Below are positions 24,493 to 42,086 of a DNA stretch of 56,560 nucleotides, piece by piece. The translations under genes and the position numbers were made by a program. The notes under the pieces were generated by a model, which did no database searches, was not told the DNA's origin, and was given only the letters and a program-made list of their open reading frames with translations. Positions within the stretch are counted from its first letter, which is position 1, and each line of letters starts with the position of its first letter. The stretch is taken from positions 1 through 56,560 of the forward strand of contig JBHLRZ010000022.1 in the NCBI GenBank assembly GCA_048882045.1. The letters run 5' to 3'. The DNA comes from Candidatus Thorarchaeota archaeon. GTDB taxonomy: Archaea; Asgardarchaeota; Thorarchaeia; Thorarchaeales; Thorarchaeaceae.

Positions 24493-24659
24493 CAATCAAG
24501 CGTAAAAAAGTAGGAGAACTTCAACCCTTTCATCGTATCAAATTGTAATAGGGAGCTGTCTTCATGGCGCGTTCAATGTACCTCAGTGAGTCAGAGAGTC
24601 AAGACTTTAAGGACAATATCACTCATCGCAGAAGAAACAATCAATCGGGGAACATCATT

Positions 24660-26849
24660 TTGACCCTAGAGAGTCTGTCTGACATTCCTGGTGTAGGTGA
24701 GAAGGTAAAACAATCGCTGATCGAACACTTCGGTAGCGAGGCTGTAGCATTAAAGGTGATTCATGACTCGCGTGTAGACTTGGTGGCCGCTGTTCCTGGT
24801 ATTGGATCTCGACAGGCGGTGAACCTCGTGAAAGGAGCCTTCGAGCATGAGTTTGGTGCGACATCCAATATGCTTCTACGAAGTGTTGACATTCGCAAAA
24901 TCTACGAAGCAAGCCTCGACATCATCAGAGGCTATGCAAACACTACCTATGCCAAGGACAAACTATTTCTGTACTTCCCACTTCCCCCGGAGAAGACTGA
25001 TGTTATTCTCGAGCGACAAAAGTACTTTGCAGATGCAAGTGACATGGCTAAAGACCTCTCAACAGACCAAAGAGAGCATCTGAAGACCCTGTTGAGTCAG
25101 GTCAGGGGTCTCTACCGTAGAGTCAAACCACGAAGAATTGAGGGTCGCGTTATCATTACAAATGACGACAAGGTCTTTGACGTCCTCATTAAGGAGGGTG
25201 TAGACAGATGGTGTCCAGTCTATGTCCTGTCAGATGGAGAGAGCGGTGCAGACTATGCACAGGGCTATGACCTAGTGATGTACATCTCTCCCCTTGGAGT
25301 ATATGACGAGTCGATAGACCTCTTGGACAATGTAGAAATCCTAGGGAAAGACTGGTCCATCGAAGATGTAGTTCCTGAGAAGACAGTCAGTTTCTATGCC
25401 CGTAACTATCGCGTCATCGATGCATCTTGCCAGTTAGTAGAAGCATTCAATGATATTCCCTCCAATACCTCTGTTTCTACATTCACTTCAGCTCTGGACT
25501 TTGAACGACTGAACAAGGTAGGAGAGATTTTGAAAAACCTTGACGAGGATGGAGACCTCGCTCAAGGCATTGATTCTGAGCTTGACAGATATCGTCATGC
25601 GGTGAAGGTGTATCCAACTGCTGTGGCTGAAACTGAAGCTTGGTTGAATGAAGAGATCACATCACGAATCTCTAAGAGCCAAGTCACCCTCGGTGGCCAA
25701 CAGATAATTAGCATCCTCCAGTCTGCTGACATGGAAGGAGCTGACGGTAGTGCTCTGAGGAACATGTTGCCTGCTGAGATTGTTGAAACGTTCACAACCA
25801 CACTCCAAGAGGCTGAGGACAAACTTGTCCAGATGCTAAATCTCACAGCCAGAGAAGCTGACTGGGTTACTGGTATCATTAGTGAGGAGATATCACTCCC
25901 AGTCAAGATGGTGGTGACTCAGATCAATGATCTAGAAGATCGACTTAGGCGGATATTCGCAGAGAAGCAGTTCCGTCTAATCAAGAAGTTTGCGAACGAA
26001 CTCGATGAACTGAAGACTGTAGTGACACAGGCAGTCCAGACCTTGCTCGAGTTTGATCTCTTCTTGGCAGTAGGACTCTTCTCGACCGATTACAAACTGA
26101 AGACTCCTGATATCAATCGTGAATACTCTGGTGTAGGTGTAAAGGGAGCAACCAATCTATTCCTTACCGAGAGTTACATCAAGGGGAAGCATGGAGAGGT
26201 CCAAGCAATTGATTATGCCATTGGTAAGACCCCCTTCCAACCATCAGGAACCAACGGCGAGAACTGTGCCATTCTATCAGGGGCCAACAGTGGTGGGAAA
26301 ACTACTACGATCCAGACACTTGCCCAGATAGTCACATTGGCCCAGTCAGGATTTCCAGTCCCCGCGGAGAAGGCTTACCTTCCAGTGTTCGAAGAGCTGT
26401 ACTTCTTTTACAAGAGTAGAGGAATGGTTAGCGCTGGTGCGTTTGAAACAACTCTCAAACAGTTTGCGGAGATTGTAGTTTCTGAAAAGTCGAAACTCGC
26501 TCTCTTCGATGAAGTAGAGGCAATCACAGAACCTGGTAGTGCCGCAAACGTGATTGCAGGACTGATTGAGATTCTACAGAGTGATCCAAACACATCTACT
26601 GTAATTTGCAGCCATTTAGCCAAAGAGATCGAAGAAGTCACTGAGGTGCCAGTAAGAATAGATGGTATCGAGGCGCGAGGTCTTGATGAGGAACTCAACC
26701 TTGTAGTGGACCGGACACCAAGGTTTGGTGTCTTGGCACGAAGTACTCCCGAGCTCATTGTCGAACGTCTTTCGAAACTAGCAAAAAGTCCAAAGAAGGA
26801 AGTCTATACAAAGATTCTGGACAATCTTACCAAGGATCGAAACAAATGA
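24660..26849 (+). CDS. archaeal MutS-family ATPase with N-terminal HhH (MutS5-like)
   Basis: IPGVGEK HhH; LSGANSGGKTT Walker A; AGAFE; LFDEVEAITEPG. Confidence 0.85.
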   Translation: MTLESLSDIPGVGEKVKQSLIEHFGSEAVALKVIHDSRVDLVAAVPGIGSRQAVNLVKGAFEHEFGATSNMLLRSVDIRKIYEASLDIIRGYANTTYAKDKLFLYFPLPPEKTDVILERQKYFADASDMAKDLSTDQREHLKTLLSQVRGLYRRVKPRRIEGRVIITNDDKVFDVLIKEGVDRWCPVYVLSDGESGADYAQGYDLVMYISPLGVYDESIDLLDNVEILGKDWSIEDVVPEKTVSFYARNYRVIDASCQLVEAFNDIPSNTSVSTFTSALDFERLNKVGEILKNLDEDGDLAQGIDSELDRYRHAVKVYPTAVAETEAWLNEEITSRISKSQVTLGGQQIISILQSADMEGADGSALRNMLPAEIVETFTTTLQEAEDKLVQMLNLTAREADWVTGIISEEISLPVKMVVTQINDLEDRLRRIFAEKQFRLIKKFANELDELKTVVTQAVQTLLEFDLFLAVGLFSTDYKLKTPDINREYSGVGVKGATNLFLTESYIKGKHGEVQAIDYAIGKTPFQPSGTNGENCAILSGANSGGKTTTIQTLAQIVTLAQSGFPVPAEKAYLPVFEELYFFYKSRGMVSAGAFETTLKQFAEIVVSEKSKLALFDEVEAITEPGSAANVIAGLIEILQSDPNTSTVICSHLAKEIEEVTEVPVRIDGIEARGLDEELNLVVDRTPRFGVLARSTPELIVERLSKLAKSPKKEVYTKILDNLTKDRNK

Positions 26850-27421
26850 GTCAACGTGTGCTGGTCTTCGGGGATGCCCATATCCCATCAAGAAGAGATT
26901 CTATTCCAAAGGAATTCTATACTCACATAGAGAAGACCAGCTATGATCTAGCTCTAATAACTGGAGACCTTACACGAGAACATGACATGTATGCAGCCTT
27001 TCCTCCATTACCTCGTTGTTTCACTGTTATTGGAAACATGGACTATGGGAGTCAGTACAATTTTCACGAACAGATTCAGTTGGATGATTTCAATGTCCTA
27101 CTACTGCATGGTACACAGTTGCGTCCACGTGGGAACATCAAACAACTCCGGGAGATAACTCAAGAAATTGGCGCTGACATAGCGATTCATGGACATACCC
27201 ACATCGCCTCAATTGATATTTACAAAGACAAGCTGTTCTTGAACCCCGGAACCGTTTCCGGAGCCACTGGAGGTTGGGCTGGAAAGACAGATGCCAGTTT
27301 CATCGAGCTCGTAGTGGACAAAAGCTCACTTGAAGTACGGCTTTTCTACACAGACTGGAAGATAGTGAAAGAATCTGAAACACTCTATGAGAAACAAGGC
27401 GGCCTAATGGTTAGAGTCTAG
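26846..27421 (+). CDS. YfcE/Vps29-like metallophosphoesterase
   Basis: GDAHIPSR, TGDL, GNMD, HG, GHTH, NPG. Confidence 0.85.
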   Translation: MSQRVLVFGDAHIPSRRDSIPKEFYTHIEKTSYDLALITGDLTREHDMYAAFPPLPRCFTVIGNMDYGSQYNFHEQIQLDDFNVLLLHGTQLRPRGNIKQLREITQEIGADIAIHGHTHIASIDIYKDKLFLNPGTVSGATGGWAGKTDASFIELVVDKSSLEVRLFYTDWKIVKESETLYEKQGGLMVRV

Positions 27422-27999
27422 TAGTCACCCCACGGGTCCGGACTAAGGAGTCGCATGTAGAGTTGCTCCAATATGATTGAACTCTGTGCCAGAGCTCTCT
27501 GTACAATTTTGCTCCTTTCAACCTTTTTTGAGCCTCCCCCTCTGAGCTTGCCCTTCTTCTGGGTCTTGACCTTCTCAGGAGTCACTTTTCCAATCTCTTC
27601 CTCAGGATAGATGTCTCGTGTGAATTTTAGTCCGGTGAAGAATGAAGACAAAGTTTCCCTGATTACAAGGTCATCAACAGAATCTCCCTTCATCTCTGCA
27701 ACATCATCAAGTGCTCTCTTCCTGAGATGGGTAGATACTATAGCCTGAATCTCTTCTGCAAGATTTCGGTTCATACCACAGGCGATACCGATATTTATCA
27801 TGAGTATCCTAATCCGGTCAAGAATTACTCCTGGGTTGTCCTTTGCGACGTTTTTCCCCCTCATGGAAACAAGCCAATCTTCGTAGGTTTCATTGACACT
27901 ACGCAGGTCCTCCTCAAACTGGACCACTTTTTTCATCTCGCCTGGTGGTATCAACGTACACCAGACGGCCATTGAAACGTGGTTGTCGTCGGATGACAT
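27418..27999 (-). CDS. hypothetical protein
   Basis: 193-aa ORF, overlaps the stop of its convergent neighbour. Confidence 0.7.
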   Translation of the reverse strand: MSSDDNHVSMAVWCTLIPPGEMKKVVQFEEDLRSVNETYEDWLVSMRGKNVAKDNPGVILDRIRILMINIGIACGMNRNLAEEIQAIVSTHLRKRALDDVAEMKGDSVDDLVIRETLSSFFTGLKFTRDIYPEEEIGKVTPEKVKTQKKGKLRGGGSKKVERSKIVQRALAQSSIILEQLYMRLLSPDPWGDY

Positions 28000-28091
28000 G
28001 AATTAGACAATCAATCATCCGTTTTCAGTATTGCGTGCTTAAGCTCTTTCTAATAGGCAAGTGGTCATCACATCTCAGTGTGGTGTACTAA

Positions 28092-28358
28092 TTGCCCAAG
28101 TACAAGGTGACGATTGAGATAATCGATATTCTGGGGACTGGTAAATGTTCAATGGACCAGCAAGTCGGTGACACCTTTGAATATCCTGAGGACAGAGGGA
28201 AAATGTGTCCGAGCTCATTCTACGTTTTGTATCCTTGGATTATGGTGATGTTGTCTGGAGGAAGCCTTTGGGGTTCAGAGGACTTCATGACATCTGGATG
28301 TCCAGACTATCGGCATCAGGTGGTCTACAAGATATCCCGAAAGGTTGTTGAGGAATAG
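28092..28358 (+). CDS. TIGR04076-like protein
   Basis: GKC.....GDTF, MCPSSF..LYP, CPD motifs. Confidence 0.7.
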   Translation: MPKYKVTIEIIDILGTGKCSMDQQVGDTFEYPEDRGKMCPSSFYVLYPWIMVMLSGGSLWGSEDFMTSGCPDYRHQVVYKISRKVVEE

Positions 28359-28374
28359 GGACTTCTCTAGTCAT

Positions 28375-28743
28375 ATGCACGACAAGTATTCCATTGGCAC
28401 TGAGATTGAATTTGGACCACTTGAGATGATTGACATACCCGCAATGATTGAAGAGAGCAAGAAGAAATGGCAGAACTACTCTCTCTGTGAGGTCAATGAT
28501 TGTGTTGTACGACTTGGAGTTATTCACGGGGAGTTCCACTGGCACAAACACGAAAATGAGGACGAGTTCTTTTACGTGATCAAGGGGAAGCTCCACATAG
28601 ACCTAGAAGGTACGACCCTTGATTTGCTACCTGGACAGGGATTCATGGTTCCCAGGAAGGTTCAACATCGCACAAGAGCACCAGAACGCACATCTATCCT
28701 GATGGTAGAGGGTAAAACAGTGACTGCAACCGGCGATGTCTAG
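28375..28743 (+). CDS. cupin domain protein
   Basis: GEFHWHKHENEDEFFYV, VPRKVQHR. Confidence 0.85.
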   Translation: MHDKYSIGTEIEFGPLEMIDIPAMIEESKKKWQNYSLCEVNDCVVRLGVIHGEFHWHKHENEDEFFYVIKGKLHIDLEGTTLDLLPGQGFMVPRKVQHRTRAPERTSILMVEGKTVTATGDV

Positions 28744-29004: not shown

Positions 29005-29043
29005 GGATACAAGACTGAGAAGAGCTAGCGCCGCATATTAAAA

Positions 29044-30561
29044 TCACGTGACAATCACATCTGGAAACTTTGTGATTATGATATCGTTGAGATACCTCAT
29101 GCTGGGATTTTTGGCTACGTCTCGGACGTCTTTCAGTATCTTTCGAACATCGTCATACTTACCCTGTCTGTATCGAAGCTTGGCCTTGAGAATCATTGAT
29201 TGGGCGGCAACACCAGGTATGTCATATTCTTGCACATGCCCCTCAAGTTTCTTCATCCAAGGTCCAGACGAATCATGATTCTCATGTAATGATGTATCTG
29301 TAAGCGTGTCAATTTCCATTTCTGTAAGATTCAGTAGGCATATGTTTTGAAATAGTAGAATGATATTCTCAGCATTGGAATCAAGCGCTTTTTTGAAGTT
29401 TATTACAGCGTTTTCAAAGCGTTCCTCTGCTTTATCAAACAGCCCTTCGATTATGTTGTACCAAATCATTTGCATGCTATCGCCGGACTTCAATACATGT
29501 TTTTGAAGAATCTCTATCGCTTTTTCCGCTTCTGTATACCTTCCAAGATTGATCAGAGCCCAGGCCTGTTGTGCTCGAGCATATGGAAGCAAAGTATGTG
29601 GCGCCTCTTCTGGAGTGAACACCTCTCCTGCAAATTTCAAAGCCTTCTCCCCATTTCCACTCAGATTGTAATATAATGAAATCATGGCGTTAATCATGGG
29701 CGCTGATCTGCCAAGTGCCTCTTGATTTGCCTTGTATTCGCATTGATACTCGGCTGCGGCATCATACTCTCCCCTCATCCCCATGATGTGCCCCATTTGA
29801 TGCTGAACAAGACCAATCAGAGACTCAGACCCTAGTTCTTCACCCAGTATCTTTGCAGTAACTGTCATATCTATTGCTTTTTGGAGATCGGTGTGCTTTG
29901 TCAAGCCAGCAAGCTTCATAAGAATAGATGCAACAGTGACTCCATCATTGAACTTCCTAGCTATTGCCAATGCTTGTCTTAGATGGGCTATTTCCTCTCT
30001 TCTTAGATTATCTTTCTCGAATCTTGCTGCTGCTATCCGGAGGAGATATAGTTCAAAATACTGCATCTCGCTGTTCTCTTTCACAGCAGCTGAAATCACA
30101 TCAAGTGACCTGACCTCTGTATCAGCTTCAGTAAAGAAACCAACGGTAATCAGTCTCCATGTAAGGTACAGATGACTAGCTATCCAGTCATTGGGTGCTG
30201 CACTAAGGGCGCTCATAAGGGACTCCTTCATTTCGCCCCACTTTATGCTGGCGCCTCTATCTATCTTGGTAAACAGAAGGAGCGGTCTGGCCAAGTCGGA
30301 CACTTTGCCTGCTACTTCTAATCTATCAATCAGATTGTAGTTCTCAATCTTATAAGCAAACAAGAATGCCAGGTACTCCATCACTGGAGATGAAGACTCA
30401 GAGATGACCCTGTCACAGAGCTTCTCTGTGAAGTCAGAATAGTTCTCTGCCTTGTCCATTACCACCTCAAGGGTGCTCCTTGTCTTCTCATCGACATATG
30501 GAAAACACACTGTTATTGTGCCAACTGGCTTCAAGCCTACCGCTTCCCTTTCAGAGCTCAA
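29044..30561 (-). CDS. TPR-like alpha-solenoid protein, paralogue 1
   Basis: PVGTITVCFPYVDE N-terminus, TPR-like helices; highly similar to the next two ORFs. Confidence 0.8.
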   Translation of the reverse strand: MSSEREAVGLKPVGTITVCFPYVDEKTRSTLEVVMDKAENYSDFTEKLCDRVISESSSPVMEYLAFLFAYKIENYNLIDRLEVAGKVSDLARPLLLFTKIDRGASIKWGEMKESLMSALSAAPNDWIASHLYLTWRLITVGFFTEADTEVRSLDVISAAVKENSEMQYFELYLLRIAAARFEKDNLRREEIAHLRQALAIARKFNDGVTVASILMKLAGLTKHTDLQKAIDMTVTAKILGEELGSESLIGLVQHQMGHIMGMRGEYDAAAEYQCEYKANQEALGRSAPMINAMISLYYNLSGNGEKALKFAGEVFTPEEAPHTLLPYARAQQAWALINLGRYTEAEKAIEILQKHVLKSGDSMQMIWYNIIEGLFDKAEERFENAVINFKKALDSNAENIILLFQNICLLNLTEMEIDTLTDTSLHENHDSSGPWMKKLEGHVQEYDIPGVAAQSMILKAKLRYRQGKYDDVRKILKDVRDVAKNPSMRYLNDIIITKFPDVIVT

Positions 30562-30673
30562 ATTAACTAATGTTAACTCTCCACTTCAATGTTTTGGACG
30601 ATTCTGCCGATGAAACTGCTGTCGTATTAGAGAAGAGTACAGAATAAGGTCTCTGCCGTTCAGAATCTGAAGA

Positions 30674-32173
30674 TCATGTGACAATCACATCTGGGAATTT
30701 CGCTATCATGATATCGTTTAGATACCTCATGCTGGGATTCTTTGCAACATCTTGGACTTCCTTCAGTATCCTTCGAACATCGTCATACCTTCCCTGTCTG
30801 TATCGAAGCTTGGCTTTGAGAATCATTGATTGCGCTGTAATACCAGGATAGTCGTTCTTATGTACGTGTTTCTCAAGTTTCATCATCCAAGGTCCGGACA
30901 AATCTTGATTTTCCTGTAGTGCTGTATCTGTGAGCATATCAATTTCCATTTCGGTAAGATTCAGAAGGCATATGTTTTGTATTACTGGAGTGGGATCTTC
31001 AGCATAGTATTCAAGCACTTTTTGGAAGTTTGTTAAACCGTTTTCGAAGCGCTTCTCTGCTTTATCAAGTAATCCCTCTACTATGTAATACCAGCTCATT
31101 TGTCCGCTATCACCAGACTTCAATGCAAGTGTATGACAGATATCTATCACTTCCCTTGCTTCTTCATACCTTTCAAGATTGATTAGAGCCCAGGCCTGTT
31201 GCGCTCTAGCATATGGAAGCATACGATTTGGCGCTCCTTCTGGAGGGATCGATTTTTCTGAAAAGTCCAGTGCACTCTCTCCATTTCCACTCAGATTGTA
31301 GTACATTGCAATGAATGAGCTTTCAAGGTGGTATGAACTACCAAGTGAGTCTAGATGTTTCTTATACTCGCGTTGATATTCGACCGCGGCATCGAACTCA
31401 CCCCTCATTCCCTTGATATGCCCCATATGATGTTGCACTAAGCCGATCTCTCCTATATATCCCAGCTCTTCACCTAGTTCTCTTGCAGTATTTAGCATGT
31501 CTACAGCCTGCTTGAGATCAGTTTGCTTGGTTGAGCCAGCTAGAATATCCAGAATACGCGCTACATTGACTTTATCATCGAACTTCCTAGCGATTATCAA
31601 TGCTTGTCTTAGTAGAGTTATCACTTCTTTTCTTTTCCCTTCCATCTGAACATTTTTCGCTTCAATCCAGAGGAGATATGATTTGAAATATCGCAACTCA
31701 TCGGTTTCATTCACAGCAGCCCAAATTGTGTCAAGTGGCCAGATCTCCACATCAGTTTCGGAAAAGAGATACTGGGTTTCCATTTTCCATGTGAGGTACA
31801 GATGAGTGGATATCCAGTCATTGGGTGACATATCGAGTGCTTTCACAAGAGCGGCTCTCACCTCATCCCAAATTATGTTTGCACCTCTCTCCACCTTGAG
31901 CTGCAACAAAAGTGGCCTGGCCAGATCAGACACTTTTCCAGCCGCTTCCAGTCTATCGATTGGATTGTAATTTTGAATCCAAAATGCAAACGAGAATGCT
32001 AAGTATTCCAGTAATGGAGATGAAGGTCCAGAGATAATCCTGTCACAGAGTTTCTCTGTGAAGTCAGCATAATTCTCCGCCTCGTTCATTACCAGCTCAA
32101 GTGTATCCCTTGTCTTCTCATCCACATATGGAAAATGCACTGTTATTGTGCCAAGTGGGTCCATTCCCACCAC
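30674..32173 (-). CDS. TPR-like alpha-solenoid protein, paralogue 2
   Basis: PLGTITVHFPYVDE; shares RAQQAWALINL and QNICLLNL. Confidence 0.8.
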   Translation of the reverse strand: MVGMDPLGTITVHFPYVDEKTRDTLELVMNEAENYADFTEKLCDRIISGPSSPLLEYLAFSFAFWIQNYNPIDRLEAAGKVSDLARPLLLQLKVERGANIIWDEVRAALVKALDMSPNDWISTHLYLTWKMETQYLFSETDVEIWPLDTIWAAVNETDELRYFKSYLLWIEAKNVQMEGKRKEVITLLRQALIIARKFDDKVNVARILDILAGSTKQTDLKQAVDMLNTARELGEELGYIGEIGLVQHHMGHIKGMRGEFDAAVEYQREYKKHLDSLGSSYHLESSFIAMYYNLSGNGESALDFSEKSIPPEGAPNRMLPYARAQQAWALINLERYEEAREVIDICHTLALKSGDSGQMSWYYIVEGLLDKAEKRFENGLTNFQKVLEYYAEDPTPVIQNICLLNLTEMEIDMLTDTALQENQDLSGPWMMKLEKHVHKNDYPGITAQSMILKAKLRYRQGRYDDVRRILKEVQDVAKNPSMRYLNDIMIAKFPDVIVT

Positions 32174-32219
32174 TTCCCTTGTGAGAGTTGGAATTCACAC
32201 GCGTCAACTCTCTACTCTG

Positions 32220-32237
32220 AGTTAACATATGTTAACT
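32220..32237. promoter_or_regulatory. perfect 18-bp palindrome upstream of TPR paralogue 2
   Basis: agttaacatatgttaact; related ttaactaatgttaac at 30563-30577. Confidence 0.5.
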
Positions 32238-32321
32238 ATCTACTTCAATGTTTTGGAAGGCCTTGCCATCAACTCAGAAGAACTTGTAGAAAATCTAAAT
32301 CCACCTCTCAGAAACTCAAAA

Positions 32322-33821
32322 TCATGCGACAATCACATCAGGGAATTTTGAGATTATCATGTCGTTGAGATACCTCATGCTTGGAGTTTTTGCGGCATCC
32401 TGTATTTCTTTCAGTATCCTCTTGACGTCGTCGTGTTTTCCTTGTCTGTATCGAAGCTTGGCCTTGAGAATCTTTGATTGTGCTGTAATACCAGGAAAGT
32501 CATGCTCTTGCACATACTCTTCAAGTTTCTTCATCCAAGGTCCAGACGAATCATGATTCTCATATAATGATGTATCTGTAAGCGTGTCAACCTCCATTTC
32601 TACAAGATTCAGAAGGCATATGTTTTGAAACAATGGAACGGGATTGTTCTCCATATAATCAAGCACTTTTTGGAAGTTCATTTGAGCGTTTTCAAAGCGT
32701 TTCTCTGCCTTATCGAGTAACCCTTCGACCATGTAATACCAGTTCAAGTTACTCACATCTCCAGACTTCAATGCATGGGTATGACAGATATCTATCACCT
32801 TCTTTGCTTCATCATACCTTCCAAGATTGATCAAAGCCCAAGCCTGTTGTGCTCGGGTATATGCAAGTTGACGATGTGGTGCATTTTCTGGAGAGATTGA
32901 CCTCTTTACGCTGTCCAGTGCTCTATCTCCATCTCCACTCATGTTATAGTAGAATGCAATGAGAGAGTCTACGCCGTTTGTCGGATGACCAAGTGAAACT
33001 TGATATTTCCTGAATTCGCGGTGATAATCGATTGAGGCATCAAACTCACCCCTCATTCCCATGATTTGTCCCATACTCTGCTGAATCTGCCCGATCTGGA
33101 CGAAATACCCAAGTTCTTCGCTTAGTTCTCTTGTGGTCAATAATATATCAATGGCTTGTTTGATATCACTCTGCCTAATCAAATTGGCTAGAATACCAAG
33201 GGTACAGGCGGCATAAACCCTATCATCGTATTTTCTTGCTATTGCCAGTACTTGTCTAAAATTAGCTATTGCTGCTTTTCTGTCGTTCTCTCTCAGTAGA
33301 GCCATAGCTTCGATCCAGAGAAGATGTGTTTCAAAAAAGCGCAACTCACTGTTATCTTTTACAGCAGCTGCGATTGTATCAAGCGGCCAAATCTCAACAT
33401 CTGCCTCAGAAAAGAAATACTGAGTAGACATTCTCCATGTAAGGTATAGATGACTTGATATCCAGTCATTGGGTGACATATCAAGGGCAGTCTTAAGAGA
33501 GGCTCTCACCTCATCCCAACTGATGTTTGTGCCTCTATTCACTTTGACATGCAGAAAAAGAGGTTTGGCCAGGTCAGACACCTTCCCTGCTGCTTCAAGT
33601 CTATCAATCAGATTGAAATTTTCTACCCAGTATGCGAATGAGATTGCCAAATACTCCAGTAATGGAGATGATTGTTCAGCGATTATCTTATCACAGAGTT
33701 TCTCTGTGAAGTCGCCATAATTCTCTGCCTCCTTCATCACCAATTCAAGCGTATTCCTTGACTTCTCATCCACATAAGGAAAACACATCGTTATTGTGCC
33801 TAGCGGCTCCATATCTACCAC
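32322..33821 (-). CDS. TPR-like alpha-solenoid protein, paralogue 3
   Basis: PLGTITMCFPYVDE; same motifs. Confidence 0.8.
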   Translation of the reverse strand: MVDMEPLGTITMCFPYVDEKSRNTLELVMKEAENYGDFTEKLCDKIIAEQSSPLLEYLAISFAYWVENFNLIDRLEAAGKVSDLAKPLFLHVKVNRGTNISWDEVRASLKTALDMSPNDWISSHLYLTWRMSTQYFFSEADVEIWPLDTIAAAVKDNSELRFFETHLLWIEAMALLRENDRKAAIANFRQVLAIARKYDDRVYAACTLGILANLIRQSDIKQAIDILLTTRELSEELGYFVQIGQIQQSMGQIMGMRGEFDASIDYHREFRKYQVSLGHPTNGVDSLIAFYYNMSGDGDRALDSVKRSISPENAPHRQLAYTRAQQAWALINLGRYDEAKKVIDICHTHALKSGDVSNLNWYYMVEGLLDKAEKRFENAQMNFQKVLDYMENNPVPLFQNICLLNLVEMEVDTLTDTSLYENHDSSGPWMKKLEEYVQEHDFPGITAQSKILKAKLRYRQGKHDDVKRILKEIQDAAKTPSMRYLNDMIISKFPDVIVA

Positions 33822-33870
33822 TTCTTATACGAGAGTTCGAATTCACATACGTTAACTCTCTCACTATTAA

Positions 33871-33907
33871 GAAATTATTAGTTTCATTATTATGAAATTA
33901 TTAGTTT
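33871..33907. repeat. short AT-rich direct repeat in divergent promoter region
   Basis: gaaattattagttt twice. Confidence 0.5.
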
Positions 33908-34021
33908 ATTAGTTCATTGTTTTTTCTTGCTCTTCAATCATGAAACTTGGTGATGCGCTGGAATATCTCAATACATATGAGAGTCGACTTCATATCTGAG
34001 AAAGTCAATATCTTAACTACA

Positions 34022-34888
34022 ATGTCCAAGATTAGACCACTACGGCCCTCTGACAGAGAGGATATTCTTGAAATAGCCCGACACATCTGGGAAGGACATG
34101 ACTATATTCCGTATCTCTTTGATACCTGGCTAAATGATAAACACTCATACACAGCAGCAATTGAGCAAGAAGGTCATGTGGTGGCTCTTGCGAATCTCAG
34201 AGTGATAGAGAATGGAAAAACAGGTTGGATGGAGGGCCTTCGAGTCCATCCTGATCATCGCGGCAGAGGTTTTGCAAGACTTCTGACACAACATGTTATT
34301 CAGATGGCAAAGGGAATTCCAGTTGAAAGGGTCCGTTATACTACTGCAGCAGACAATGAATCATCTCTCCATCTGGGAGAATCAGTAGGGATGAGAAGGA
34401 AGTTTGACCTTGCTGTCCATTGGCAAGACATTGAGGATGAAACCTCTTTGACTACATCACGGAACCCTGTCAGAAAGATGTCTGTGGGGGAGATATATCC
34501 ACACATTCTGAATGCTGAGCTATTCCCTCACAATGTAATAATCTACGATTGGAAAGCTCTAGATGTTACTCGTGAGAGTCTTGAAAGCATTGGAAAGTAT
34601 GCGAGATTTTGGACTCAAACTAGGGAAGACGAGATTGTGTCATTCTCTCTTGGGCTCACTCGTGAGGACCAATCGGGCACTCATTGGAGTTTCTCAATCT
34701 ATGCAAAAGATGGCTCAACATTTCTTGACCAATTAGCACACCAAGTGAAGATGGCATTCGACGCAGGGTGCAAAAGCATCTTTGTTACATATCAGACCGA
34801 TTTTGTTGAAACATTCTACTCTCTTGATTGGGTTCAACCAGTTGAGGGTGAGGCGATGGCGCTCACCTTACTTGAGAGAACTTTCTAA
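34022..34888 (+). CDS. GNAT family N-acetyltransferase
   Basis: IWEGHDY, WMEGLRVHPDHRGRGFA. Confidence 0.85.
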   Translation: MSKIRPLRPSDREDILEIARHIWEGHDYIPYLFDTWLNDKHSYTAAIEQEGHVVALANLRVIENGKTGWMEGLRVHPDHRGRGFARLLTQHVIQMAKGIPVERVRYTTAADNESSLHLGESVGMRRKFDLAVHWQDIEDETSLTTSRNPVRKMSVGEIYPHILNAELFPHNVIIYDWKALDVTRESLESIGKYARFWTQTREDEIVSFSLGLTREDQSGTHWSFSIYAKDGSTFLDQLAHQVKMAFDAGCKSIFVTYQTDFVETFYSLDWVQPVEGEAMALTLLERTF

Positions 34889-34939
34889 CACTGTTTTGGG
34901 ACGATGAAAGATAATCGATATTTAGAAAATAAGAGATTG

Positions 34940-34961
34940 GAAGAAGTAGTGCTGTTGATAG
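34940..34961 (-). repeat. tRNA-Asn 3'-end repeat R5 (degenerate)
   Basis: gaagaagtagtgctgttgatag versus gaagaagtggcgccgctggtag; five transitions. Confidence 0.7.
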
Positions 34962-34962
34962 C

Positions 34963-35613
34963 CTATGAAACTACTCCTGAAAATTCATCTTCAATATGCT
35001 TCAATCTCTTCACATATTCATCACCTTTCCAACTCTCCTTATTGGATGCTGATGATGCTAGCTTTCGCAAAGCGTGAAGAAACGTCAAATTTTCTTTAGC
35101 TGCCATTACATCAATATGATGTCTTTTGGACATAGCATCCCGGCGGAATTTGTAGAATCTCCCTCCTAAAAGGAGAAAGACAGAAACAGATGCAAGCGAA
35201 ATTCCCAATGGAAATGATATCACTTGATCCGAAGGAGAGATTATTTCCATTATAGAGAAAAATATAGCACTTGGTAATAGGCATATCACACCTATGGCGA
35301 AAGGAAGGGCTCCCTTAGAATCATCGATTTTCTCTCTGTTCATCTGCACCTCGATGTAGGAAACGAGTTCCGAATCGCTCAGAGTGTCCATTTCCCAGAC
35401 CTCAAGATAAACCAAGTCCTCTCCTTGTGGATTCTGAATGACATATGGATCGAGCTGCCAGTCTTCTCCAAAATGTTGGCGCTTCACTGTATACTCCGCA
35501 TATTTTGGATTTGCTTCAAGCATTTTTTCAAAGTCGTTGCATCTCTTGTCGATATAGTAAGCAAGTTCGGTCAAATCCGAAACATCCACCTCGACTCTCA
35601 ATCTCTTCTGCAC
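34963..35613 (-). CDS. cassette membrane protein (paralogue of 37493-38116)
   Basis: KRQHFGEDWQLDPY, two TM helices. Confidence 0.75.
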   Translation of the reverse strand: MQKRLRVEVDVSDLTELAYYIDKRCNDFEKMLEANPKYAEYTVKRQHFGEDWQLDPYVIQNPQGEDLVYLEVWEMDTLSDSELVSYIEVQMNREKIDDSKGALPFAIGVICLLPSAIFFSIMEIISPSDQVISFPLGISLASVSVFLLLGGRFYKFRRDAMSKRHHIDVMAAKENLTFLHALRKLASSASNKESWKGDEYVKRLKHIEDEFSGVVS

Positions 35614-35673
35614 CTACTCACACCTTGGTATTGCACTTGAAACCAAATTAGGATTCCTAACAGCTTTATACCT

Positions 35674-35698
35674 AAAAAGAAGTGGCGCCGCTGGTAGG
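35674..35698 (-). repeat. tRNA-Asn 3'-end repeat R4
   Basis: aaaaagaagtggcgccgctggtagg. Confidence 0.9.
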
Positions 35699-35750
35699 AA
35701 ATGTTGATGTGTATTCACAGCACGTCAAATCAAAAGGGGAGTCCCAATAC

Positions 35751-35981
35751 ATGGATGAAATTATGAGATGTCCATCTTGTGGAGATGAAATGGAGCCCGG
35801 ATATCTTGTATCTGATTATCCGATTTATTGGTGTGACCACATTCCAAAATTCATTTGTGTTTGTGGCGAACGTTTCTCCACATTTTCGAGAATGTGATCA
35901 GGAGTATCTGGCTACCGGTTCAAGAAATGCAAACTAATTCGGTATGAGGAAGTCAAACAGACGCCCAACAGACACAAATGA
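35751..35981 (+). pseudogene. zinc-ribbon (DUF6487-like) pseudogene
   Basis: CPSCGDEMEPGYL N-terminus; in-frame TGA at 35895 then SGYRFKKCKLI, where YRCxxC is expected. Confidence 0.55.
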
Positions 35982-36000
35982 TAGGTTACCCCTGGCGAGA

Positions 36001-36022
36001 AAAAAGTGGCGCCGCCGGTAGG
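36001..36022 (-). repeat. tRNA-Asn 3'-end repeat R3
   Basis: aaaaagtggcgccgccggtagg. Confidence 0.9.
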
Positions 36023-36026
36023 AAAA

Positions 36027-36722
36027 TCAGAGATGTTTGCAAATATAGGCTTGAGAATCATCTTCAATTGTAAATCTGCCTTTTCTTTGAAAGAACCTCT
36101 TTAACACCTCTTCATGGTGATTATTCATCTCTGTCGCATACTCATCCTTCAATTCTCTTTGAAAACATCGCAAGATCTTATCAAAATCAGAGAAATCCAG
36201 TTGTCCTTTGACTTCTTTCTTGCTGAAAGTAAAATGGGTTGAGAGAATCTTCTCAAATCTGTTGTAAAAGGAAACTGATTTGACATGTTCCTCAACTAGC
36301 AAATCTACTATCCTTTCATACTCACTATTTGGAGAGCTACAAATCAGAAGAGCTATTCCATCGTCTTCTAGATGTTGAGATATGTTCTTGACTACATTGG
36401 GTAAGTTTCTCAGGTACATATAGCCCACTCCAATTGAAAGAATCAAATCGAACTTCCTCCCCAAATCAAAGTCTTCCAAATCTTCAACAAGAAAAGTAAC
36501 ATTTTCATGTACATTTCTTTGTTGGGCATTTCGGATCGCGTTCACATCAATATCTATTGAAGTCAATTCCTGCACTCTATCTGCAAGCGCAAACGTTATC
36601 CTTCCAGTTCCACATCCTACTTCTAGTATGGATTTGTCTTTGACATCAACCAACTCAGTAATGTCCCTGATGTCTTTCTCAGTTTGTGAATTCATCCCAA
36701 TTTTGATTATGGACACGTCCAT
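36027..36722 (-). CDS. class I SAM-dependent methyltransferase (cassette)
   Basis: ILEVGCGTGR, FDLILS. Confidence 0.85.
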   Translation of the reverse strand: MDVSIIKIGMNSQTEKDIRDITELVDVKDKSILEVGCGTGRITFALADRVQELTSIDIDVNAIRNAQQRNVHENVTFLVEDLEDFDLGRKFDLILSIGVGYMYLRNLPNVVKNISQHLEDDGIALLICSSPNSEYERIVDLLVEEHVKSVSFYNRFEKILSTHFTFSKKEVKGQLDFSDFDKILRCFQRELKDEYATEMNNHHEEVLKRFFQRKGRFTIEDDSQAYICKHL

Positions 36723-36742
36723 TATAACTAATATGAGGTTAC

Positions 36743-36765
36743 AAAAGAAGTGGCGCCGCTGGTAG
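36743..36765 (-). repeat. tRNA-Asn 3'-end repeat R2
   Basis: aaaagaagtggcgccgctggtag. Confidence 0.9.
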
Positions 36766-36836
36766 ATTAGCTGACTTGTTCCTTGAAACAGATGTTCTTA
36801 AATCTCTAATTTCGAAATCAAAAATAGGGAGATGAT

Positions 36837-37388
36837 TTGAAGCGTATAGGTATTCTACTTCTCATTTTCATATTGCAAATCACCATTGTTCCTATAGCTG
36901 CACAAGATATCATTGATGGGAATCAAATTAACATCAATCTAACATTGTCCGATCCTATCGAACATCATGCGTTTTGTTTTGCTGACACTCTTGAAATAGG
37001 GACAACTATCGATTGGACATTTGAAACATCTTCCTCTGAGGTCAGTGTTGACTTCTTCATCATGGATGAAGGCAATTGGACCATTATGGACACAAGTGAT
37101 GAGATGGTTTACCCAATCTTCGGAATATATGAAGCAACTCAAAAATATGACAGTTTAGAAATACCATATAGTTCAACGTGGTACTTTGTATTTAGAAATC
37201 CAATTGGACAAGAGAGTTCAGTCCAAATCACAGGCACTATCGTTAAGACTAACCCTACAAGTATTTCCTCAACAACCCCAACAACTTCTGAAAATTGGAT
37301 TGATTTCAGTATTATTCTTGTTTCCGGCTCCATTATGGCTTTACTTATCGTGGGTTATATAGCATACAAAAAGGTAGGCCAACAATAA
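36837..37388 (+). CDS. secreted single-pass protein with GOLD/emp24-like beta-sandwich (cassette)
   Basis: signal peptide, VDFFIMDE, PYSSTWYFVFRN, S/T linker, C-terminal TM. Confidence 0.7.
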   Translation: MKRIGILLLIFILQITIVPIAAQDIIDGNQININLTLSDPIEHHAFCFADTLEIGTTIDWTFETSSSEVSVDFFIMDEGNWTIMDTSDEMVYPIFGIYEATQKYDSLEIPYSSTWYFVFRNPIGQESSVQITGTIVKTNPTSISSTTPTTSENWIDFSIILVSGSIMALLIVGYIAYKKVGQQ

Positions 37389-37471
37389 CAACGATAATTG
37401 AGAATTTGACAGAGAATCCATTCTCAGAAGTTTCTGTGAATTCCTCAACATAACATAAACGGGCTTGGCTA

Positions 37472-37492
37472 GAAGAAGTGGCGCCGCCGGTA
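37472..37492 (-). repeat. tRNA-Asn 3'-end repeat R1
   Basis: gaagaagtggcgccgccggta; the last 19 nt are identical to the tRNA end and trailer. Confidence 0.9.
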
Positions 37493-38116
37493 TTATGAAA
37501 TAACTCTCCCAAGTGAATCCTCAATATATCGTAGTCTCTTCATGTAATCCTCGCTTTTTTCTACATTGGGAATTGAAACAAGTTTTTGTAACGCAGAGAT
37601 AAATATAGGATTCTCTCGAGCCTCAATCAGATCAATGTGACGCCTTGTCGCTATCATCCTCTTTCGTTTCCTGTAGTAGATAGTACCAAGAATGAAAGTG
37701 ATAAGATCTAAGGCAAGCATAGGACCTACTGCTCTAATGAGATCCAAACTTGAAAAATAGATCATTACCCCCATTGAGTTGATTATTGCCACTGGTATTA
37801 ATGCCAATAAAGCTATGGGGTGCCAAACGGTGCTCTCTGAACTCTCTATGTACTTCATCTCAGCATCAACAAAAGAAAGAAACTCGGAATCACTCAAGGC
37901 ATCAACAATCTCAGGTTCTATAAAGATCAAGTTGGCCTCGTCTTCGTCTTGAACAAAATATGGGTCGAGCTTCCAATCTTCTCCCCAGTGTTGCCTCTTC
38001 AGTCTGTATTCACTAAACTCAGGATTTTCCCTCATCGCACTCTCAAGCTCTTTACACTTCCTATCAGTGAAGTACTCGTCATAGGCCAAACCAGAGAATT
38101 CCTCCTCCTCATTCAT
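37493..38116 (-). CDS. cassette membrane protein (paralogue of 34963-35613)
   Basis: KRQHWGEDWKLDPY, two TM helices. Confidence 0.75.
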   Translation of the reverse strand: MNEEEEFSGLAYDEYFTDRKCKELESAMRENPEFSEYRLKRQHWGEDWKLDPYFVQDEDEANLIFIEPEIVDALSDSEFLSFVDAEMKYIESSESTVWHPIALLALIPVAIINSMGVMIYFSSLDLIRAVGPMLALDLITFILGTIYYRKRKRMIATRRHIDLIEARENPIFISALQKLVSIPNVEKSEDYMKRLRYIEDSLGRVIS

Positions 38117-38198
38117 AATCTTTCACACCTACACTACATTAGTAAGAGTGACCTGAAACCAGATGAGGGTTTCCAATGAACTGATAGATAGAAAGAAG

Positions 38199-38363
38199 TG
38201 GCGCCGCCGGTAGGGTTTTCGGCTCTTGTGGAATTCACAAGAACCCTCGAACCTACGACCATTCGCCGCACACCACGAAGTGTGATGCGCTACAACTGTC
38301 TGGCTCTCAATCGTGAGATTGAAAGGTAACAGGCTGTCGCTCTACCTACTGAGCCACGGCGGC
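38199..38363 (-). tRNA. tRNA-Asn(GUU) with three introns (37/38: 38298-38326; about 43/44: 38262-38291; 59/60: 38216-38245)
   Basis: Removing three hairpin inserts gives a 76-nt cloverleaf GCCGCCG...GTT...TTCGAGC CCTAC CGGCGGC G CCA; strict BHB at 59/60, relaxed at the other two. Confidence 0.88.
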
Positions 38364-41293: not shown

Positions 41294-41370
41294 TGGTGGG
41301 CCCGGCGCGATTTGAACGCACGACCGACAGGTTATGAGCCTGCTGCTCTACCAAGCTGAGCTACGGGCCC
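41294..41370 (-). tRNA. tRNA with CAU anticodon, probably tRNA-Ile2
   Basis: GGGCCCGTAGCTCAG...CTCATAA...GTTCAAATC...CGGGCCCACCA; the GGGCCC acceptor is Ile-like rather than Met-like. Confidence 0.9.
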
Positions 41371-41978: not shown

Positions 41979-42086
41979 GCCCCAGTAGTGTAGCCCGGCC
42001 CAGCATCTAGGCCTTTCGAGTCTAAGAGGCTTCGAAGGTTCTTCGAGGTCGAGAAAACCCGGGTTCGAATCCCGGCTGGGGCACCA
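41979..42086 (+). tRNA. tRNA-Glu(UUC) with 30-nt intron at 45/46 (42027-42056)
   Basis: GCCCCAG acceptor, TAGGC-CTTTCGA-GTCTA anticodon arm, hairpin intron with relaxed BHB, GGTTCGAATCC, CCA. Confidence 0.9.

Follow-up and report, generated by a model that had tools for sequence, protein, structure and literature searches.

We analysed a stretch of 56,560 nucleotides (the window), the entire contig C22 of a 3.63-Mb metagenome-assembled genome (MAG; 93% complete, 44% G+C) of a Candidatus Thorarchaeota archaeon from the Asgard class Thorarchaeia. No closer relatives of eukaryotes are known than the Asgard archaea, whose gene acquisition is an open question. Positions 29020-38213 of the window appear to be a hypervariable array of gene cassettes anchored at a tRNA-Asn gene. 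Judged by its sequence, a cassette is one gene, rarely two, with a 21-bp copy of the tRNA tail on both sides. Comparison with related genomes showed cassettes that have evidently been gained, lost, reordered and exchanged between lineages via breakage and joining inside these copies, and this behaviour of the cassettes is well supported. An earlier note on the same DNA, made from its letters alone, had described part of the array and explained it by integron-like capture of one-gene circles through a recombinase acting in trans. Its observation is confirmed, and its interpretation is partly supported.

The anchor gene was called as tRNA-Asn neither by ARAGORN nor by Rfam, because it contains three introns. 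Despite this, the gene is genuine, since its exons (38363-38327, 38297-38292, 38261-38246 and 38215-38199, from the alignment with the congener G018) are 100% identical to the intronless 76-nt tRNA gene of G018, which ARAGORN calls Asn(gtt). The introns of 29, 30 and 30 nt (38326-38298, 38291-38262 and 38245-38216) lie at 37/38, 43/44 and 59/60. The repeat (REP), CTACCGGCGGCGCCACTTCTT, has 21 nt and consists of tRNA positions 62-76 including CCA and a six-base CTTCTT trailer. That the 3' end and trailer of tRNA-Asn recur as direct repeats, as first claimed from the letters, was borne out by five minus-strand copies of the 20-mer CCTACCGGCGGCGCCACTTC at 38195-38214 (0 mismatches), 37475-37494 (2), 36747-36766 (2), 36003-36022 (1) and 35679-35698 (1), against zero copies in 100 shuffles. 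The sites had been located correctly, with positions 2-5 nt off. We found no further copy of this Asn-type 20-mer in the rest of the 3.6-Mb genome. The edges of REP are sharp, with information content at background by positions -1 and +22, and the flanks share no other common motif. We rejected a longer site beyond the 21 nt; the sequence conserved for ~90 nt past REP is confined to cassettes of the membrane-protein (MP) type. We also rejected decayed tandem tRNA genes as the source of the REPs, because the sequence upstream of every REP is not tRNA-like. From the tRNA outwards, the anchor, repeats and cassettes are as follows.

38199..38363, minus strand: tRNA-Asn(GTT), three introns, exons identical to the G018 tRNA
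38193..38213, minus strand: REP0, the anchor copy at the tRNA 3' end
37493..38116, minus strand: cassette 1, MP_A, 207 aa, two predicted hydrophobic helices
37473..37493, minus strand: REP1 (20/21)
36837..37388, plus strand: cassette 2, 183 aa, N-terminal signal-like and C-terminal hydrophobic segment
36745..36765, minus strand: REP2 (20/21; G to A at position 5)
36027..36722, minus strand: cassette 3, class I S-adenosylmethionine (SAM)-dependent methyltransferase, 231 aa (Pfam Methyltransf_31, E = 7e-19)
36001..36021, minus strand: REP3 (20/21)
35751..35975, plus strand: cassette 4, DUF6487 Zn-ribbon pseudogene
35677..35697, minus strand: REP4 (20/21)
34963..35613, minus strand: cassette 5, MP_B, 216 aa, paralogue of MP_A (36% identity)
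34941..34961, minus strand: REP5, decayed, 14/21 (16/23 with flanks), mismatches all transitions

Every interval between intact REPs in the window holds one open reading frame (ORF), and two of the five genes lie on the opposite strand, in agreement with the one gene per interval and mixed orientations read from the letters. The MP_A stop codon even overlaps the first base of REP1. The decay of the REPs rises with distance from tRNA-Asn; the distal copies are the most decayed, as had been noticed, down to REP5 and still fainter copies after the TPR genes described below.

The locus was gathered from ~20 genomes of the family, the relatives being retrieved via the conserved flank that encodes a ZIP transporter, and from two metagenome contigs. 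Interval statistics were taken from 16 related loci and the window, using successive co-oriented REPs and ORFs of at least 60 aa. One ORF was found in 34 of 42 REP-to-REP intervals, two in 5/42 and four in 3/42; the median interval was 762 bp, and 33 of the 56 cassette genes are co-oriented with REP. When content and order of the cassettes were compared across relatives, as the earlier note had suggested, they differed, and all mappable homology breakpoints fell at REP edges. Between the window and G018, the MP_A block (87% nucleotide identity) spans exactly REP0 to REP1, and the methyltransferase block (76%) spans exactly REP to REP; for the TPR block the identity is 90%. Where the window carries the GOLD-like cassette 2, G018 carries an APH kinase cassette, and its TPR cassette precedes the methyltransferase, which in the window comes ahead of the TPR genes. 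The two metagenome contigs, with MP_A 92% and 90% identical at the nucleotide level, presented two further arrangements, namely MP_A, REP, a 394-bp cassette with a 66-aa ORF, REP and a G015-type cassette, and another MP-type cassette followed by REP and MP_A. On both contigs the homology to the window stops at most 2 nt from a REP edge. MP_A thus occurs with four different downstream neighbours (three identified, the fourth diverging right after REP) and two different upstream neighbours, its nucleotide identity being 83-92% across the arrangements.

Likewise, three genera (g1, g3 and g7) reuse the methyltransferase, Zn-ribbon, GNAT, TPR, M1 peptidase and cation efflux cassettes in other orders, and other species combine these families with the F39 cassette in further orders. 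Exact matches to the Asn-type REP occur more than once per contig in the same three genera, and twice, on separate contigs, in g33. Changes are seen next to the tRNA, where accretion had been proposed, and at internal REPs as well. The methyltransferase cassette is found with REP at both ends also in G018 and G011. Its identity to the window is 86% in G011, 81% in G093 (another genus), 67% in G018 and 65% in G012, and the core gene F2 ranks these genomes differently (G012 89%, G018 86%, G011 84% and G093 74%). The conflict means either that lineages have exchanged cassettes or that old alleles were sorted among them. REPs are 19-21/21 identical beside genes with protein identity down to 36-50%, so that the repeats must be selected or regenerated. 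Crossover mapping from REP variants gave hints, namely a G-to-A change at position 5 that precedes the methyltransferase cassette in two genomes and 5' bases of REP that track the upstream gene, but the cases are too few and partly contradictory. The cargo of the relatives includes radical SAM, PhzF, UbiD, homoserine dehydrogenase, peptidases, nitroreductase and OsmC, and consists of ordinary accessory enzymes.

In four related loci (L032 in G005, L041 in G027, L161 in G089 and L040 in G014), the REP array is inverted and sits on the upstream side of tRNA-Asn, implying that the tRNA gene has been inverted. In three of these four, 56-83 nt separate the tRNA 5' end from the first REP. The tRNA-Asn genes of G014 and G089 have a different trailer, TTAACCATAGTTAA, and those of G005 and G014 abut the genes F23-F5-F17.

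Beyond REP5 the window continues with GNAT and TPR genes, and conserved flanks lie on either side of the array.

33947..34888, plus strand: GNAT acetyltransferase
29020..33857, minus strand: three tandem TPR genes (32322-33821, 30674-32173, 29044-30561), 499-505 aa
38434..39309, minus strand: ZIP transporter, conserved proximal flank outside the array
27418..28743, strand not stated: conserved distal flank, families F4, F12 and F16

The three TPR paralogues are 61-68% identical to each other. Decayed REPs trail two of them (~30642-30662 and 29020-29034), and the TPR homologue of G018 (90% nucleotide identity) is a cassette with a recognisable REP on each side. In G092, GNAT and one other gene share a REP-bounded interval that a TPR cassette follows. 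The array thus runs on through GNAT and the three TPR genes, its distal, old part, to ~29020; the segment 34940-38363 first proposed was indeed array, only too short. In genera g4 and g5 the tRNA-Asn gene is followed directly by F12 and/or F4 and then by F2 and F3 (L046 and L047; also L163), the equivalents of F12/F4, F2 and F3 in the window spanning 24564-28358. The tRNA-Asn locus of these two genera is thus an empty site, and the ~9 kb from 29020 to 38213 is accordingly an insertion zone between conserved flanks. The TPR family occupies ~14 loci in the genome, one of them within the repeat array on contig C43 described below.

As to the cassette genes of the window, the membrane proteins, the methyltransferase and the Zn-ribbon pseudogene were recognised correctly from the letters alone, and the GOLD-like protein of cassette 2 stands as a weak lead toward a beta-sandwich fold. 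Neither MP_A nor the cassette 2 protein matched a Pfam family. The Zn-ribbon gene is interrupted by an in-frame TGA (35895-35897), and a Cys-to-Phe change has altered its second CxxC. Further assemblies of the species share the TGA, and their gene calls have 44-48 aa, indicating that the pseudogene is fixed in the population. Homologous Zn-ribbon cassettes are present in G014, G027, G021 and G012, and probably in G016.

MP_A is preceded by a conserved leader of ~80 nt. Compared with loci L035, L037, L040, L041, L043 and L032, the leader between REP and the MP start (~60-90 nt; 38117-38192 and 35614-35676, minus strand, in the window) is better conserved than the MP protein itself, with 81% nucleotide identity between the window and G015 against ~29% for the protein. 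It holds an inverted repeat GAAAC-N10-GTTTC and a GGTG Shine-Dalgarno-like motif, and may be an operator or RNA element. The T-loop intron of tRNA-Asn (59/60), found in many relatives, has its 3' end 2 nt short of the 5' edge of REP. This position hints at a possible connection between tail recombination and tRNA intron gain. Two more tRNA genes lie 3-4 kb from the array (41979-42083, plus strand, and 41294-41370, minus strand), one of them intron-containing and found only by Rfam, the other a tRNA-Met(CAT); no tail repeats were seen near either.

A k-mer scan of the genome uncovered similar arrays at other tRNAs, on contigs C9, C12, C2 and C49, as had been anticipated. C9 has five copies of TTCAAATCTCGCCCTCCGCACCA behind tRNA-Leu, C12 four copies of (TT)CGAATCTCGCCCGGTCCACCA, C2 two copies of a tRNA-tail repeat, and C49 copies of ~42 nt of a tRNA 3' part. 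Their intervals mostly contain one or two ORFs. The identity blocks on C9 and C12 begin at T54 of the T-loop and finish at CCA; a block with these limits, tRNA loop and CCA, is what integrases that target tRNA genes usually leave. The same process has thus probably operated at several other tRNA genes of this genome. In an all-against-all BLAST of the arrays of the genome, no common mobilisation gene or family was found, the TPR paralogues alone being common to two arrays. The ARAGORN census of tRNA genes (37 calls) is incomplete, because many tRNAs contain several introns. A different direct repeat of ~55-70 nt, with the core GCAGAAAGTCAGGTCCGA..ATCTCGCGTGCCATGACG, delimits at least seven consecutive intervals, most of them with a single gene, on C43 (12161-22422, L144) and C56 (11137-14481, L145). 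It had no Rfam match and is possibly the tail of some gene.

We tentatively favour, without counting it as probable, a site-specific recombinase that acts in trans and moves the cassettes episodically. A cassette would exit as a circle with one REP and re-enter at any REP, that of the tRNA tail included, and conservative site-specific recombination would join the circle and the REP. The enzyme might be supplied by unbinned plasmids or viruses, or might belong to an unrecognised family. We favour such an enzyme because the edges of the exchanged blocks are uniformly sharp, because the blocks of the sister arrays run from the tRNA loop to CCA, and because REPs are intact beside strongly diverged genes; it would act in trans, since no catalyst is present in the array or was detected in the genome.

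Several results weigh against a dedicated recombinase or against recent movement. The search of the genome for an orphan tyrosine recombinase, which the earlier note had suggested, detected none: there was no PF00589 match at E <= 0.01, while 14/14 control genomes matched. Matches to PF16795, PF00239 (serine recombinase) and PF01797 (IS200-type Y1 transposase) were also absent from the genome, which carries three TnpB-like genes. Only 9/28 congeners have PF00589 matches, on small contigs; these contigs are without tRNA, REP or tRNA-tail direct repeats. A search of viral contigs for REP and the tRNA-Leu repeat returned two chance matches in GC-rich coding sequence and nothing else. Several anchor sequences per genome would require several specificities, and apparent insertions at internal REPs and the inverted arrays do not fit a simple model in which insertion happens solely beside the tRNA. 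In eight further assemblies of this species, three of them NCBI MAGs and five Logan runs, the sequence is colinear with the window and the array 99.8-100% identical, so that turnover must be slow or episodic; no sign of present-day activity was seen among them, and differences in the array first appear at ~8-17% nucleotide divergence. Finally, the contig order of a MAG can be a strain mosaic. Against this concern, the reads across each junction exceed 21 nt, and independent assemblies repeat the order; we rejected an assembly artefact because all eight agree on the order. MAGs often lose plasmids and viruses, and absence from the bin is therefore weak evidence against an enzyme acting in trans. 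As a separate observation, neither the genome, at 93% completeness, nor 19/28 congeners showed any tyrosine recombinase, and hence any XerA-like gene.

The main rival explanation, which we consider unlikely, is host homologous recombination, RadA-dependent or short-homology, acting on the 21-bp REPs without any dedicated enzyme. Direct repeats would delete or circularise cassettes, circles or imported fragments would enter any REP, and tRNA tails would be used because they are conserved across species. The missing recombinase in this genome and most congeners, the many anchor sequences per genome, which include the non-tRNA repeat of ~55-70 nt, the events at internal REPs, the occasional inverted arrays and the slow turnover all speak for it. 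However, homologous recombination would have to act on a very short sequence of 21 bp, or 15 bp without the trailer, and random homologous capture would not be expected to produce fixed tRNA landmarks and uniform block edges. It also leaves unexplained how a new gene acquires its first REP and why near-perfect REPs stand beside strongly diverged genes.

Two further explanations fit the data poorly. The array could be a locally duplicated ancestral one that descended vertically with differential deletion, the T-rich end of REP being kept as a terminator. MP_A and MP_B and the three TPR genes are indeed local paralogues, the array is fixed within the species, the order GNAT then TPR is kept across g1 and g3, and co-oriented cassettes have their REP 0-50 nt past the stop codon with a pyrimidine tract at its end. 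We nevertheless regard this account as improbable: it does not explain the reversed order of TPR and methyltransferase between G018 and the window, the changing neighbours of a closely similar MP_A, or the conflicting similarity rankings of cassette and core genes; the cassettes are mostly unrelated single-copy genes, and a terminator has no need of 15 invariant tRNA bases. It is more improbable still that the REPs are attL/attR scars of multi-kb integrase-bearing proviruses or plasmids, which integrated serially and were then whittled to single genes. Elements that accrete in tandem and leave partial tRNA copies are well known, as in tycheposon islands (10.1101/2020.12.28.424599), and one relative's cassette encodes a protein with a phage tail-sheath C-terminal domain. 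Against such scars, the ~20 related loci contained no integrase-bearing island, integrase or integrase fragment at tRNA-Asn. A Pfam scan of 35 cassette proteins likewise revealed no integrase or transposase among the 25 best families listed. The tidy units with one intact gene and short spacers, the identical single-gene units with both REPs in different genera, and the metabolic rather than viral cargo also speak against whittled elements. The outcomes that the earlier note had named as telling against its reading, namely fixed gene content, boundaries of variation off the repeats, and large integrase-bearing islands in relatives, were not encountered at genus level.

A broader conjecture, which may well turn out to be wrong, concerns the lineage as a whole. 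Gene capture without an integrase in cis might be Thorarchaeota-wide, with conserved genes, many tRNA genes and possibly others, lending their 3' tails as recombination sites for one-gene cassettes and with a mover encoded by the host, either a new recombinase family or very-short-homology recombination. If this were true, the arrays would serve the function of an integron by a different principle, and would be one of the main channels through which accessory genes flow in Asgard archaea.

Among known systems, the arrays are close in behaviour to integrons. Archaeal integrons and clusters of attC sites lacking integron integrases (CALINs) are enriched in Asgard MAGs, most of them without an integrase on the contig and thought to be served in trans (PMC9668308). 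The arrays share with them mostly single-gene cassettes, diverse accessory cargo and orders that differ between genomes. Integron cassettes, however, carry attC sites, which form hairpins from imperfect inverted repeats (55-140 nt as the criterion), are inserted at attI beside intI and mostly have one orientation, being promoterless and transcribed from a shared promoter, Pc. In contrast, the site of the arrays is an unstructured copy of the tail of the anchor tRNA, the anchor is a tRNA gene, cassette orientation is mixed (33/56 genes along REP), and each array has the sequence of its own tRNA. Folding of 91-nt stretches around four REPs, as DNA and on both strands, gave z-scores of -0.9 to +0.9 in 7/8 folds and no common hairpin, and the genome-wide search for IntI found no PF00589 or PF16795 match. 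Integron-like capture is therefore an apt description of how the cassettes behave, and a strict integron is contradicted by the lack of a detected IntI and of a predicted attC-like fold.

Bacterial cis-mobilisable elements (CIMEs), integrative mobile elements exploiting Xer (IMEXs) and pdif modules are bounded by recombination sites and borrow an integrase or the host Xer proteins. The arrays are similar in being small, site-flanked cargo modules without a recombinase gene of their own. Unlike the present case, in which the genome has no detectable tyrosine recombinase, these elements rely on an identifiable integrase of an integrative and conjugative element or on XerC/D; we found no Xer-like PF00589 protein in the genome, and REP is without a dif-like dyad by inspection. 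The arrays also resemble elements that integrate at tRNA genes, as direct repeats of the tRNA 3' part flank the inserts and the tRNA is regenerated, and differ from them in that no integrase of their own, intact or fragmentary, was found, whether in the window, elsewhere in the genome or among the cassette genes of related arrays that were scanned with Pfam. The tycheposon islands of Prochlorococcus are variable and tRNA-adjacent, with older elements pushed inwards and decaying and several tRNA anchors per genome (10.1101/2020.12.28.424599), and the arrays share these features. Tycheposons themselves encode a tyrosine or serine recombinase together with replication genes, extend over several kb and have att sites of ~40 nt (10.1101/2020.12.28.424599). 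The array units, in contrast, have ~0.3-2 kb, one cargo gene and a 21-nt repeat, and neither the arrays examined nor the host genome yielded a recombinase; the 35 cassette proteins scanned yielded no recombinase, primase or helicase among the families listed, and hence no sign of the hallmark module for integration and replication. In Caldiarchaeum subterraneum, tRNA fragments and intron gain have been attributed to the integration of a mobile element (PMC3293823). The displaced tRNA fragments and the introns varying between close relatives are common to both cases; at the Caldiarchaeum locus, one element of 1.8 kb with a recombinase gene of its own leaves a 5' fragment, as opposed to an array of recombinase-free one-gene units here.

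A full-text literature search found no description of such arrays in Asgard archaea. The arrays are recognisable as a type by mostly one-gene units, copies of the 3' end of the anchor, variation at these copies and the lack of a recombinase, and they show that Thorarchaeota store and exchange single accessory genes in a regular, modular manner at tRNA tails. The locus also ties cassette recombination sites to unusual tRNA intron positions, tRNA-Asn having three introns in the window and being intronless in a congener whose exons are the same. Should a new enzyme be responsible, or should ~20 bp be enough for host recombination, the arrays would represent a gene-capture mechanism beside integrons and integrase-borne islands, and the flexible gene pool of MAGs could be found by a simple sequence rule, the repeated tRNA tail. 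In its working the locus resembles an integron or CALIN as well as tandem accretion at a tRNA, yet departs from each in the very features by which these systems are defined.

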